Source: a virus
Lineage: Duplodnaviria > Heunggongvirae > Uroviricota > Caudoviricetes
Strand: one strand, 5' to 3'
Length of the DNA stretch: 21,445 bases
IMG/VR virus record: IMGVR_UViG_2778261069_000007
Below are positions 1,125 through 4,996 of the stretch, piece by piece. Each line of letters opens with the position of its first letter. Positions within the stretch are counted from its first letter, which is position 1. Below the pieces are notes generated by a model. It did not search any database. It was not told where the DNA came from and was given only the letters and a program-made list of their open reading frames with translations. Made by a program: the position numbers and the translations under genes.

Positions 1125-2177
1125 ATGAAAAATACTGTAAAAATAAACAGTGTTGATTTAATCAACGCTGATTGCCTGCATTTTATTCAGTCCCTGCCTG
1201 ATGATTCCATTGACCTGATTGTTACCGATCCGCCGTACTTCAAGGTGAAACCCAACGGCTGGGACAATCAGTGGAAAGGGGACGAAGATTACCTGAAGTG
1301 GCTGGACCACTGTCTGGCTCAGTTCTGGCGGGTGCTGAAACCTGCCGGAAGCCTTTACCTGTTCTGTGGACATCGCCTCGCATCTGATATCGAGATCATG
1401 ATGCGTGAACGTTTCAACGTTCTTAACCATATTATCTGGGCGAAGCCGTCCGGACGATGGAACGGGTGTAATAAAGAAAGTCTGCGCGCATATTTTCCCG
1501 CAACAGAACGCGTTCTGTTTGCTGAACATTACCAGGGGCCATATCGCGGCAAAAGTGACGGCTATGCGGCAAAAGAAAGTCAACTCAAACAGCACATAAT
1601 GGCACCGCTGATTTCGTATTTCAGGGATGCTCGTGCCGAACTGGGTATAACGGCAAAACAGATTGCCGAAGCCACTGGTAAGAAAAACATGGTTTCCCAC
1701 TGGTTTGGTGCCAGTCAGTGGCAGTTGCCGAATGAGGCTGACTACCGGAAGTTGCAGGCACTGTTTTCCCGTATAGCGGCAGAGAAGTTTCAGGAACAAC
1801 AACTGGAACAACCACACCACCAGCTGGTGGCATCTTATGATTCACTGAATCGCAAATATTCTGAATTGCTGGATGAGTTTAAAACTCTCCGGCGCTATTT
1901 CTCCGTATCAGTTTCCGTGCCTTATACCGACGTCTGGACGCATAAACCCGTTCAGTTCTACCCGGGTAAACATCCGTGTGAGAAGCCTGCGGATATGCTC
2001 CGGCAAATAATCAATGCCAGTAGTCGACCAGGCGATCTGGTTGCTGATTTCTTTATGGGATCCGGTTCCACAATAAAAGCAGCAATGGCGATGGGGCGTC
2101 GGGCGTTAGGTGTTGAGCTTGAGTCAGATCGGTTTAACCAGACGGTGAAAGAGGTAAGTGAACTGGTGGGGAAATAA
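1125..2177 (+). CDS. DNA methyltransferase, beta-class amino-methyltransferase (N6-adenine or N4-cytosine); apparently orphan
   Basis: 350 aa. Catalytic DPPY motif (IVTDPPYF) near the N-terminus and AdoMet-binding FxGxG motif (DFFMGSGST) near the C-terminus, the motif order of beta-class MTases. No obvious restriction partner. Confidence 0.9.
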   Translation: MKNTVKINSVDLINADCLHFIQSLPDDSIDLIVTDPPYFKVKPNGWDNQWKGDEDYLKWLDHCLAQFWRVLKPAGSLYLFCGHRLASDIEIMMRERFNVLNHIIWAKPSGRWNGCNKESLRAYFPATERVLFAEHYQGPYRGKSDGYAAKESQLKQHIMAPLISYFRDARAELGITAKQIAEATGKKNMVSHWFGASQWQLPNEADYRKLQALFSRIAAEKFQEQQLEQPHHQLVASYDSLNRKYSELLDEFKTLRRYFSVSVSVPYTDVWTHKPVQFYPGKHPCEKPADMLRQIINASSRPGDLVADFFMGSGSTIKAAMAMGRRALGVELESDRFNQTVKEVSELVGK

Positions 2178-2227
2178 TTCTGGTGTCAGAGCTTTTATTC
2201 GCTAATTTTTTCACTGGGAGGCTATTT

Positions 2228-2485
2228 ATGCATTCACACCATCATCAAATATCTATGATCCCACTTACCATGAGTTCACCCATTAAAGGTTTTTCACTGT
2301 ATGTAGAAAGCGAAGACATGGCTGTCGCTATAGCTGAGCTTGAAAATGCCTTATCACAGCTCAAGAACGGAGATAAGGCATTCAAAGAAAGTGGCACGCT
2401 GGTTGGTAACGTCAGAGCAAGTTATTGCTATCCTTACCGTCCTCATTGTGCCGCGAAAGGTCTTTATTGGGATGAAGGGGATTAA
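2228..2485 (+). CDS. Hypothetical small protein, about 85 aa
   Basis: ORF 2183..2485; ATG at 2228 is preceded by GGGAGG at 2215-2220. Its stop codon overlaps the stop of the convergent minus-strand gene (TTAA at 2482-2485). No recognisable family. Confidence 0.4.
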   Translation: MHSHHHQISMIPLTMSSPIKGFSLYVESEDMAVAIAELENALSQLKNGDKAFKESGTLVGNVRASYCYPYRPHCAAKGLYWDEGD

Positions 2486-2994
2486 GCAAGGACTTGTTCA
2501 CCGATAGTTACTGGTAACGGACAAATGTATTCCCAGACTGGATCAGGGTTAAAAGTTTTTCCTGACCAGTAAAGCTCCATTCTGTAGGTGAATTCCAATA
2601 CCGATGTATCATTTCTTAATAATGACATATCTCCGCGATGATAACTATCTGTTTGTATTATGAAAATTTTATCTGATGGTTTTCCGTCTGTAAGTCGAAA
2701 ATGTTTAGCCTCCTCCAGGTTACCCCAGGCGAAGAGTGACGTATAGCGAGAAGGTTTTTGCGGGCAAACTCCTCTTCGGTAAAACTCAAGTCCCCAGTCG
2801 ATGAGTTCGTTTTTATTATAAATTTTTGCCGCATTATTAATGAGGTATCCTTCGCCTTGTGGAGCAAGCCCGCGCGGAAAAAGTTTGTCTACCAGAGATG
2901 ACATTTCAACAGGAGTTATATCGGAGAATTGCTTTGGTGTAACGATATCGCCTGTTGAGTATATTCCTCGGCGATCAACCATAAATAGTTTCAT
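2482..2994 (-). CDS. Hypothetical protein, about 170 aa; accessory (moron) gene of unknown function
   Basis: ORF 2482..3006 on the minus strand. The second ATG (2994) has a GGAG RBS six nt upstream on the minus strand, so it is the likelier start. About 40% GC. Transcribed against the surrounding late genes, so it must have its own promoter in 2995-3211. No known motif recognised. Confidence 0.55.
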   Translation of the reverse strand: MKLFMVDRRGIYSTGDIVTPKQFSDITPVEMSSLVDKLFPRGLAPQGEGYLINNAAKIYNKNELIDWGLEFYRRGVCPQKPSRYTSLFAWGNLEEAKHFRLTDGKPSDKIFIIQTDSYHRGDMSLLRNDTSVLEFTYRMELYWSGKTFNPDPVWEYICPLPVTIGEQVLA

Positions 2995-3023
2995 TAATTT
3001 CTCCATTGATAGTTGTTACTTTT

Positions 3024-3060
3024 GGCGATGTAACGATATCAAACGAGAATTTATATCGCC
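3024..3060. promoter_or_regulatory. Imperfect palindrome GGCGAT...GATATC...ATATCGCC in the divergent intergenic region; candidate operator
   Basis: GGCGAT (3024-3029) is the reverse complement of ATCGCC (3055-3060). The 12-mer TGTAACGATATC occurs at 3029-3040 and again at 2938-2949, inside the 5' end of the minus-strand gene. Confidence 0.3.
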
Positions 3061-3235
3061 AGATGCTTAATCTGACACTTCATCTGACCCTAGTATGTGC
3101 CGGTTTTTTTTATTTAAGGCCGCTGACAGGTCCATTTAGTGCGACGCCTTTCCCCGTTTCCGCTCCTGGAATATTCGGGGATTTTTTATTCCCTCAATTT
3201 GCACCCGCGATATGTGCGAGGTGAGAGATGACGAA

Positions 3236-3571
3236 ATGCCTCATAACCCAAATACCTGGCCGGACTGGCTGGAGTTGTTCCAGAGCTGGTGGCGTGGAGA
3301 TACGCCGCTGGGCGCAGTGATTATGTCGATTGTTATGGCTGGTTTGCGTATTGCCTATTTTGGTGGTGGTGGCGGCTGGAAACGAAAAACACTCGAAATT
3401 TTGCTCTGTGGCGCTCTGACGCTGACATTTGCATCCGCGCTTGAGTATGTCGGATGGCCTAAATCGCTTTCTGTTGCCATTGGTGGTGGGGTGGGGCTGA
3501 TCGGGGTCGATGCAATTCGTGGGGCTGCAATGAGAGTAATCGGTAACAAGTTTGGTGGCTCTAAGGAGTAA
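3236..3571 (+). CDS. S: Holin, lambda S-like (class I, three predicted TM segments)
   Basis: Pattern and length resemble lambda S (hydrophobic segments, glycine-rich turn, charged C-terminus). Directly precedes the endolysin. ORF opens at 3212; start at the in-frame ATG 3236 was chosen, but 3212 is possible (dual start?). Confidence 0.8.
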   Translation: MPHNPNTWPDWLELFQSWWRGDTPLGAVIMSIVMAGLRIAYFGGGGGWKRKTLEILLCGALTLTFASALEYVGWPKSLSVAIGGGVGLIGVDAIRGAAMRVIGNKFGGSKE

Positions 3572-3574
3572 TTT

Positions 3575-4051
3575 ATGCAGGTACTAAATTCCCAGCGTAA
3601 AGCTTTCCTCGATATGGTGGCATGGTCAGAAGGAACGGATAATGGACGGCAACCGACATGTAACCACGGTTATGACGTTATTGTTGGAGGCGAACTATTC
3701 ACTGATTACTCCGATCATCCTCGCAAACTTGTCACACTAAACCCGAAACTTAAATCAACAGCAGCTGGTCGTTATCAGATTCTTTCACGCTGGTGGGATG
3801 CTTACTGTAAACAGCTTGGCCTGAAAGACTTCTCTCCAAAAAACCAGGACGCTGTGGCACTGCAACAGATTAAAGAGCGTGGCGCTTTGCCGATGATTGA
3901 TCGCGGCGATATTCGTCAGGCAATCGACCGTTGCAGCAATATATGGGCTTCATTACCCGGTGCAGGTTACGGTCAGTATGAACATAAAATCGGTGACCTG
4001 ATTGCCCGATTTAAAGAGGCTGGTGGGGTGGTAAATGAAGTTGAGCTATAA
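3575..4051 (+). CDS. R: Endolysin, lambda R-type lytic transglycosylase
   Basis: 158 aa; near-collinear with lambda R as recalled (QRKAFLDM-AWSEGTDNGRQ, NHGYDVIVGGELFTDYSDHPRKLVTLNPKLKST, GALPMIDRGDIRQAIDRCSNIWASLPGAGYGQ). AAGGAG RBS at 3561-3566. Confidence 0.95.
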   Translation: MQVLNSQRKAFLDMVAWSEGTDNGRQPTCNHGYDVIVGGELFTDYSDHPRKLVTLNPKLKSTAAGRYQILSRWWDAYCKQLGLKDFSPKNQDAVALQQIKERGALPMIDRGDIRQAIDRCSNIWASLPGAGYGQYEHKIGDLIARFKEAGGVVNEVEL

Positions 4052-4581: not shown

Positions 4582-4651
4582 TATTAACAATACTGTATTG
4601 ATTTTATTTTTTCGTTAGACTTTTCCATGAGTTATGGATGAGGTTAACGAT

Positions 4652-4996
4652 ATGAATATAAAAAATTCAATTTTGTTAGTGATATCACTATTAGTGAGTG
4701 GTTGTGACAACGCACCTAAATTTGATGGTACCAGCCAGGAATCGCTCCGATATTCAGCAGAAAAAGTCTTTGAGTCATTATCTGAAGAGAAGAAGGCCGA
4801 ATTGAAAACGGCGATTGTCGATACTTTGGGGTACTACGATACTCAGGCAGAGTTAAGCAACGATAAAAGTTACTCTTCGAAGAAAATGAGTCTGGTAGTG
4901 TTCAATGGAAAAACGGCTGATCAGGTTATTTCCGAAGCTGCTACTTATCGGGAGAAAAAAGAAAAACTTATTCAACAATATCTGCACAAAAAGTGA
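4652..4996 (+). CDS. Hypothetical lipoprotein (moron) downstream of the lysis cassette
   Basis: ORF 4634..4996; ATG at 4652 is preceded by GAGGT. Signal peptide with lipobox LVSGC (MNIKNSILLVISLLVSGCDNAP). About 40% GC. Followed by a strong terminator. Occupies the position that bor holds in lambda but is not Bor-like in sequence. Confidence 0.6.
   Translation: MNIKNSILLVISLLVSGCDNAPKFDGTSQESLRYSAEKVFESLSEEKKAELKTAIVDTLGYYDTQAELSNDKSYSSKKMSLVVFNGKTADQVISEAATYREKKEKLIQQYLHKK

Follow-up and report, generated by a model that had tools for sequence, protein, structure and literature searches.

AcrIF11 and Arr are small stand-alone ADP-ribosyltransferases; AcrIF11 ADP-ribosylates a CRISPR complex, and Arr inactivates rifamycins. 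ADP-ribosyltransferases carry a triad of the type H-Y-E/D/Q, R-S-E or H-H-h on strands β1, β2 and β5, which line the pocket for nicotinamide adenine dinucleotide (NAD+). AcrIF11 has been described as phage- and plasmid-borne (PMC12421852), and a p0068-family ADP-ribosyltransferase with a Dmd-domain antitoxin has been predicted in Escherichia, Shigella and Salmonella phages (Iyer et al. 2022, PMC9503650). The BC2332-like family lies within the ADP-ribosylation superfamily of SCOP (PMC3000352), and Pfam assigns DUF2441 to its ADP-ribosyl clan (PMC7955679). Here we describe a pair of convergent genes in the Caudoviricetes record IMGVR_UViG_2778261069_000007 of IMG/VR, whose whole 21,445-nucleotide (nt) stretch is called the window and is numbered from its first letter. 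One gene encodes a protein of 170 amino acids (aa), which is a divergent member of the DUF2441/BC2332 family, and the other encodes a protein of 85 aa. Together they form a mobile two-gene prophage cargo cassette (a 'moron'). Prophage cargo that encodes proteins of the ADP-ribosyltransferase fold is already known; what is unusual in this pair is the conserved convergent partner.

A mobile two-gene prophage cassette

Close relatives were found to differ at a gene boundary, where some carry the pair and others lack it. In phage SfV and at least 18 E. coli records listed by a megablast search with positions 1900-3600, the methyltransferase and holin genes that flank the pair were adjacent, and the pair was missing. 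In SfV and many E. coli prophages these two genes were 92-99% identical to those of the window, with ~40% of the query covered in two pieces around the cassette. The flanks of the empty-site prophages were 98-99% identical to the window flanks, and both genes of the pair were missing from these sites together. The empty site of strain RMDEC465 has 77 bp between the methyltransferase and the holin, with 33 bp where the window has 2186-3200. Likewise, blastn against an empty-site locus (L004) aligned only positions 1900-2185 and 3201-3600. The base composition of the pair was also unlike that of its neighbors, with a GC content of 0.41 for the 170-aa gene (called the enzyme gene below) and 0.43 for the small gene, against ~0.47-0.52 for the flanking genes and 0.55-0.57 for the terminase region. 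As to a promoter and terminator of its own, a further mark of a moron, we found a conserved upstream block, a promoter candidate picked out by eye, and terminator-like hairpins with T-runs that flank the two-gene unit in relatives; a consensus scan reported no promoter.

The core of the cassette was present in 7 of 5,426 complete E. coli genomes, only one of which (C311) has the pair in the window's own context. The other six carry the core at 93% identity in another lambdoid prophage, where it follows a Q-like DUF1133 gene and immediately precedes a class II holin gene. The Salmonella copy of the pair also lies between a Q-like gene and a holin gene, and Providencia (L018) has a further, distant copy. 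In Arsenophonus and a related contig the pair is located upstream of a methyltransferase gene, not downstream as in the window. More copies were found on one unassigned contig and on ten IMG/VR viral contigs, and a scan of species-representative genomes returned a single locus, in Izhakiella. At least three prophage backbones carry the pair. In a further lambdoid prophage (L019, 5001-6746), the toxin-antitoxin genes hicA/hicB lie on the minus strand in the slot that separates the Q-like gene from the holin, with a truncated and divergent remnant of the small open reading frame (ORF) beside them. The remnant suggests that the cassette was replaced there via recombination inside the small gene.

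These comparisons bear out much of an earlier sequence-only reading of the window, made without database searches. It had placed the pair in a moron hotspot between a methyltransferase and a holin gene. Domain matches identified both flanks as named, and the slot proved variable: the pair is missing from near-identical SfV-like prophages, it is found in other backbones, and hicAB occupies the slot elsewhere. Invariance of the pair across related prophages was not seen. The two convergent ORFs, their starts and the TTAA shared by their stop codons were all as described, and the low GC content reported for the minus-strand gene held against the terminase region. The ribosome-binding site cited in support of the minus-strand start is the GGAG at 3004-3001, which is conserved among relatives. 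The proposal that the two transcripts are antisense at their 3' ends follows from the stop overlap, since each transcript runs into the other gene.

Each locus with an intact enzyme gene at least 68% identical to that of the window had the convergent small ORF with the 4-nt stop overlap (~20 loci, not all independent), and in IMG/VR the small ORF was present in all 10 loci with an enzyme gene at least 71% identical. The overlap takes three forms, TTAA, CTAA or TTAG, and is maintained in Salmonella, Providencia and Arsenophonus. Because it persists with changed stops at a synonymous divergence (dS) of at least 1, the gene arrangement itself appears to be conserved. Some loci would nonetheless fit a view of the two genes as unrelated neighbors, a small phage late gene beside an independent cargo gene, linked by recombination history only. 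The small gene occurs without any DUF2441 gene on a freshwater phage contig (L017), its remnant persists where hicAB replaces the enzyme gene, and distant DUF2441 genes have other, variable neighbors. In one IMG/VR locus (L025, 5490-6860; UViG_2657244961_000008), an IS10 copy interrupts the pair precisely at the TTAA junction. The 9-bp duplication of the target, TGCTTAATC, restores both stops, and both ORFs are intact, 1.3 kb apart; this locus is a natural 'uncoupled' variant. However, the pair has moved jointly into those several backbones, its genes are lost together from the empty sites, and the stop overlap has survived with altered stop codons at the divergence given above. On balance, we consider the two genes unlikely to be unrelated.

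None of the DUF2441 genes at 26-45% identity had the small partner. Such loci were found in a clade located between Rz/Rz1 and the small terminase gene, in Gordonia temperate phages, Klebsiella phage KP12, Vibrio and Photobacterium, and in metagenomic loci. The Rz-small terminase clade (L035-L040 from IMG/VR, for example L035 4962-5504) is 44-45% identical to the window protein, lies antisense to the late operon and has variable neighbors, such as a KTSC-like ORF in L040. The Gordonia phage homologues are located in the tail-integrase lysogeny region, and in phage JuJu beside RelBE. A tblastn search of 50,697 phage records with the enzyme returned only Klebsiella phage KP12 and Gordonia phages. 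Where the pair has decayed, the decay was one-sided in the few cases seen, with the enzyme gene lost and the small gene kept. The Izhakiella australiensis locus (L024 1352-2139, NZ_MRUL01000008.1) has an enzyme gene with a stop at codon 118 and the substitution R83Q, and its small ORF is intact.

This pattern of decay, including the lone small ORF of L017, is what might be expected of a toxin-antitoxin or abortive-infection pair, in which a self-toxic enzyme would be held in check by the 85-aa protein as antitoxin or immunity factor. The toxin-like ADP-ribosyltransferase fold and the small ORF that accompanies all intact enzyme genes of the clade at 68% identity or more would also fit. In contrast, type II systems are co-transcribed from one autoregulated promoter, and here the genes converge with overlapping stops and share no promoter in any locus. 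The small gene lacks a conserved promoter and would not be made in the lysogen, where a toxin needs neutralizing, and its product carries neither a DNA-binding nor a known antitoxin domain. Relatives of 26-45% identity have no such partner, whether in bacterial genomes or in similar prophage slots, and their solitary state speaks against obligate pairing as toxin and antitoxin. The family representatives described below are mostly single-domain proteins of ~170-190 aa, and PADLOC gave no match. We regard a toxin-antitoxin pair as improbable. The restriction-like function that the earlier reading also offered as speculation is likewise speculative.

The enzyme-like protein and its small partner

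The 170-aa protein had no match in Pfam or PADLOC-DB v2 at E values up to 1, nor in NCBIfam, and its PHROGs match, phrog_5663, is annotated as function unknown. Its homologues in a large protein collection all carried a precomputed hit to PF10386 (DUF2441). The gathering score of PF10386 is 25 bits; relatives at 36-37% identity passed this threshold (P0014 with 33.6 bits, P0039 with 32.1 bits), and relatives 45-71% identical to the window protein fell below it. An exhaustive HMMER search yielded 495 cluster representatives at 50% identity, nearly all of them single-domain proteins of 170-190 aa. A profile of 71 homologues gave one match among solved structures, 2aua_A (E=8.8e-14), which spanned profile positions 60-170 and residues 103-216 of the 2aua chain. 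2aua, titled 'hypothetical protein' and available since 2005, is BC2332 of Bacillus cereus, and its SCOP family is d.166.1.6. These results show that the 170-aa protein belongs to DUF2441/BC2332 by profile and fold rather than by the Pfam threshold, and the earlier reading, which placed neither protein in a known family, is thus corrected for this one. The profile and structure searches returned no homology of the 170-aa protein to a structural or lysis protein.

The predicted model of the protein was of high confidence, with a predicted local distance difference test (pLDDT) score of 94.8. Fold tests on this model indicated the same fold as 2aua, with the split β-sheet core of ADP-ribosyltransferases predicted to be present. 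They grouped it with Arr, OspC3, AcrIF11, TreX, heat-labile enterotoxin, pertussis toxin and diphtheria toxin, as well as RES toxins, Tpt1, DarT, ParT, MbcT and PARPs. A structure search of BFVD returned solely uncharacterized phage proteins. For 2aua itself, the MCSG survey reported a ProFunc template match to the diphtheria-toxin active site (PMC3024214).

Across 108 homologues (~30% identity), D7, G42, R73, R83, L126, Y142, W143, E155 and P161 were invariant, and R8, E70, R74, S82 and S86 were nearly so. The invariant polar residues suggest an active enzyme, not a scaffold. The enzyme gene was under purifying selection, with a ratio of nonsynonymous to synonymous divergence (dN/dS) of 0.05-0.2. 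The N-terminus, MKLFMVDRRG, has no hydrophobic signal-like segment when read directly, and the protein is presumably cytoplasmic.

Two observations on other family members concern the company DUF2441 keeps. The metagenomic protein P0159 (572 aa) has an N-terminal CHAT caspase-like protease domain (1.7e-28) fused to a C-terminal DUF2441 domain, an architecture reminiscent, by analogy, of conflict-system effectors. In Photobacterium (L013 7728-9645), a DUF2441 homologue lies ~2.2 kb from a pair of genes for an AAA_15/AAA_21 ATPase and an HNH nuclease, which looks like a Septu-type defense system.

The fold allows other roles than the one we favor. An anti-defense or small-molecule-modifying enzyme would resemble AcrIF11 or Arr, which are also small stand-alone enzymes (130-170 aa) on mobile elements. 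However, there is no aca-type regulator nearby and no resistance-gene context, and such a role seems distinctly unlikely. A virulence toxin against eukaryotic cells, like other prophage-borne ADP-ribosyltransferase toxins, is far less probable still. The MCSG authors proposed such a role for BC2332 (PMC3024214), and slots beside the lysis cassette do harbor toxins. The window protein has neither a hydrophobic N-terminal signal (by reading, with no signal-peptide predictor applied) nor a delivery domain, and it has homologues in soil phages of Gordonia, in marine Vibrio and Photobacterium, and in environmental metagenomes. We rejected a eukaryote-directed toxin on the apparent absence of a secretion signal and this environmental spread of the family.

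The 85-aa protein matched no family in Pfam or PADLOC-DB v2 (each with E up to 1) or in NCBIfam, and its single PHROGs match was insignificant (E=0.29). When 15 members of the small-protein family were scanned against Pfam, only stray single-member matches appeared (E 0.009-0.25), none of them to Dmd, and tblastn against the 50,697 phage records returned nothing. No relatives of known fold or function were detected by these searches. The protein is mildly acidic, and a weak model (pLDDT 60) predicted a β-α-β-β core. Judged by its sequence evolution, the small ORF is a real gene: homologues from 58% identity up preserve its frame and length, and its dN/dS of 0.09-0.42 indicates purifying selection.

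Both genes have alternative longer starts. The small gene could begin at GTG 2183, giving 100 aa, as RefSeq has it in E. coli C311, and the enzyme gene at ATG 3006, giving 174 aa. We preferred the shorter starts listed in Table 1 because the homologues are typically 85 and 170 aa long, and for the small gene also because the cassette core begins downstream of GTG 2183.

Table 1. Positions of the cassette, its genes, signals and flanking genes in the window
Feature	Position	Strand	Remarks
Sequence replacing 33 bp of pair-less SfV-like prophages	2186-3200		blastn vs empty-site locus L004
Mobile core	2206-3114		93% identity to a different lambdoid prophage (Q-like DUF1133 ... class II holin)
Small gene	2228-2485	+	ATG 2228; 85 aa; late-operon strand
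Shine-Dalgarno GGGAGG of small gene	2216-2221	+	6 nt ahead of ATG
170-aa gene	2482-2994	-	ATG at 2994; DUF2441/BC2332-type, predicted ADP-ribosyltransferase fold
Shine-Dalgarno GGAG of 170-aa gene	3001-3004	-	6 nt before ATG; kept in 6/6 distinct homologous loci
TTAA common to both convergent stop codons	2482-2485		4-nt overlap
Hairpin (-17 kcal/mol) followed by TTTT	2343-2387	-	Inside small ORF, on sense strand of enzyme gene; putative terminator
Coding copy of 12-mer TGTAACGATATC	2938-2949		Encodes part of G-D-I-V-T; unconserved
Conserved non-coding block GTTTGATATCGTTACATCGCCAAAAGTAACAACTATCA (sense strand)	3007-3044	-	Dyad and upstream 12-mer copy
Inverted repeat TGGCGATGTAA / TTATATCGCCA	3023-3061		Arms 3023-3033 and 3051-3061, 11 nt, 91% complementary
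Promoter candidate, by eye	3050-3078	-	GTGTCA (3078-3073), 17 nt, TATAAA (3055-3050)
Degenerate remnant of hairpin and T-run	3089-3114	+	Right cassette edge
Terminator-like hairpin and T-run	3164-3190	+	Just upstream of holin; matches terminator annotated there in phage SfV
Left flank, N6/N4 DNA methyltransferase	1125-2177	+	N6_N4_Mtase match 9e-42
Right flank, lambda-family holin	3236-3571	+	Phage_holin_3_1 match 3e-27

Control regions and a proposed role in the lysogen

The region upstream of the enzyme gene contains several conserved elements. A 38-base block next to the start was 72-92% identical among relatives, compared with 57-91% at third codon positions. Since it is more conserved than synonymous sites, this block is under constraint, and it is likely an operator or 5'-leader element, as predicted from its sequence. 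It contains an imperfect dyad (TGATA..GTTA / TAAC..TATCA) as well as a copy of the 12-mer TGTAACGATATC. The 12-mer has exactly two copies in the window, this one at 3029-3040 and the one in the coding sequence, where ~0.05 chance matches would be expected, and none of 100 shuffles contained two copies. In the E. coli copies closest to the window, the coding copy differs at one or two bases, and remoter homologues have other residues at the codons it covers. Because it is unconserved, we rejected as unlikely a two-site operator made of the 12-bp direct repeat, and the coding copy is probably coincidental rather than a second operator site. The operator proposed from sequence alone in the earlier reading stands in part: the repeat, the palindrome and a conserved upstream block are real, but the two copies of the repeat probably do not act as a two-site operator.

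The inverted repeat brackets the candidate -10 element and start site, and its outer arms, TGGCG...CGCCA, are kept in 5 of 6 distinct relatives. At the positions of the promoter candidate the relatives read xTGxCA and xATxAx. The 5' leader RNA of the window is predicted to form a hairpin that would pair with the Shine-Dalgarno sequence (z=-2.9). We dropped a 5'-leader RNA switch, as RNAalifold on six homologues predicted no conserved structure.

The different contexts of the small gene have no more than ~22 nt in common ahead of its ATG, so the cassette appears to hold no conserved promoter for it. In Salmonella, a hairpin and T-run lie between the Q-like gene and the small ORF and read as a strong bidirectional terminator. 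The position of the small gene on the late strand, its lack of a conserved promoter and this Salmonella terminator together imply that it most likely depends on Q-antiterminated late transcription. The hairpin inside the small ORF could terminate the enzyme mRNA, and L002 and Providencia L018, though not every relative, have hairpins like it. At the equivalent of 3089-3114, the sequences of PCP06235, Salmonella and Providencia show a clear terminator-like hairpin.

Several side observations were made around the cassette. The segments 3089-3114 (CCTAGTATGTGCCGGTTTTTTTTATT) and 3165-3190 (CCTGGAATATTCGGGGATTTTTTATT) are each 26 nt long, are 73% alike and end in a T-run; this resembles a tandem arrangement of terminator-like elements separating cassette and holin, in which the first element is degenerate. 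Next to them (3212-3238), the holin frame stays open beyond its annotated start at 3236 and reaches another ATG in frame, eight codons further upstream at 3212, because the TAA of empty-site relatives (GAC TAA ATG) is replaced here (GAC GAA ATG). ATG 3212 could yield an N-terminally extended holin or an antiholin form. At the left end, positions 1-564 are AT-rich (28-34% GC) without an ORF of 52 aa or more, and are not homologous to the matching region of C311, where an ORF6N-domain gene sits downstream of Q. A further cargo slot seems to lie between Rz/Rz1 and the small terminase gene, where a 120-aa gene on the plus strand (4634-4996; 35-43% GC) encodes a product that matches DUF6694 (2e-13) and has an N-terminus like that of a lipoprotein. 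Scans of the complete window for Rfam families and tRNAs returned no match.

Taken together, the reading we favor, with a probability of roughly 40%, is that the pair is a cargo cassette expressing an NAD-using enzyme in the lysogen, opposed by late transcription, and that the small protein may modulate the enzyme. Transcription of the enzyme gene would be driven by a conserved control region of its own (~3007-3078) and run counter to the late operon, and the enzyme would be made in the lysogen, as with lambda bor. Lysogen expression is suggested because the gene lies antisense to the late operon, a position that recurs in the Rz-small terminase clade and parallels bor/iss, and because the Gordonia phage homologue lies in a lysogeny region. 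By ADP-ribosylating a target with NAD+, or by cleaving NAD+, the enzyme might benefit the lysogen. The likeliest benefit would be interference with superinfecting phages, which is speculative; the CHAT-protease fusion P0159 and the Septu-like pair ~2.2 kb from one homologue are hints of such a phage-defense role. The 85-aa gene would be read only when Q-antiterminated late transcription passes through it. That transcript would be antisense across the whole enzyme gene, so at induction convergent transcription might silence the enzyme while the small protein is made. Speculatively, the small protein could then act as a clade-specific modulator or inhibitor of the enzyme.

Several points weigh against this reading. 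PF10386 gave no hit for the window protein (E up to 1) or for the near-identical P0001 (E up to 10), and our literature search found no experimental work on any DUF2441 protein. NAD+ use is inferred from the predicted fold alone. The triad candidates R8 (first strand), S86 (strand 86-90) and E155 (strand 154-159) are invariant or nearly so and could form an R-S-E-type triad, an assignment made by sequence order only. A sigma-70 consensus scan of the minus strand ahead of the enzyme gene found no promoter, so expression in the lysogen is a proposal only. Neither protein matches a known defense model in PADLOC-DB v2. Finally, an interaction of the two proteins is presumed and speculative, and the small protein need not be a dedicated partner because it is found alone in L017.

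A stronger form of the proposal is a self-disarming defense module, in which the enzyme would block incoming phages, and induction would both silence it and make an inhibitory 85-aa protein, with the stop overlap coupling the two states. The small protein would then inhibit leftover enzyme, and the prophage's own lytic cycle would escape. We hold this version to be doubtful; if true, it would provide a first function for the DUF2441 family.

The favored reading, a lysogen-expressed cargo enzyme, matters beyond this locus. DUF2441/BC2332 is a sizeable family with a structure in hand since 2005, and no tested function was found for it in the literature. Its members recur in accessory slots of Enterobacterales and Gordonia temperate phages, and those of enterobacterial prophages mostly run against the late operon, from which we hypothesize that the enzyme is active in the lysogen. 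As a host, E. coli is tractable and offers natural controls, namely the near-identical prophages without the cassette, the variant split by IS10, and the nonsense/R83Q variant. If the enzyme proved to be a defense or anti-defense factor, it would add a new ADP-ribosyltransferase family to the biology of phage-host conflict, and the convergent partner could reveal how a prophage shuts such a factor off at induction. If there were no phenotype, the gene would be one more uncharacterized cargo gene. A new mechanism is not yet indicated by this evidence; a lysogen-protecting function is a reasonable candidate, unproven so far.

Comparison with known systems

The window protein has diverged too far to be recognized by the Pfam model of its own family. 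2aua is also longer (224 aa), and the profile match covers only its C-terminal portion, its N-terminal region having no detectable counterpart. Since the members of DUF2441/BC2332 are without known function, membership gives no mechanism.

With Arr and AcrIF11, the 170-aa protein shares the predicted ADP-ribosyltransferase core fold, a size of 130-170 aa, a single domain, and carriage on phages, plasmids or integrons. DarT-DarG, ParT-ParS, RES-Xre and MbcT-MbcA resemble the window pair in the superfamily fold, a small adjacent gene, a location on mobile elements, and a link with phage defense. However, those systems are co-transcribed operons with recognizable antitoxin domains (macro, Xre), whereas the window genes converge and overlap at their stop codons, the partner lacks a recognized domain, and most DUF2441 members have no partner.

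The predicted p0068 and Dmd system is similar in joining a predicted ADP-ribosyltransferase with a small protein in enterobacterial phages, but the small protein of the window has no Dmd or any other Pfam hit. Neither window protein had a homologue among the Escherichia, Shigella or Salmonella phages of the GenBank phage collection (50,697 records, tblastn). Identity with that system, judged by its description (PMC9503650), was rejected on these two grounds.

A parallel in genomic setting is offered by lambdoid morons that run against the late operon, such as lambda bor/iss. Like them, the cassette shows presence/absence polymorphism, an atypical base composition, an antisense position beside the lysis cassette and an apparent control region of its own; iss in L002 occupies such an antisense position next to the lysis cassette. 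The window cassette differs from bor/iss in two ways. Its product is a presumably cytoplasmic, enzyme-like protein instead of a lipoprotein, and it has a second gene on the late strand that overlaps the first convergently.

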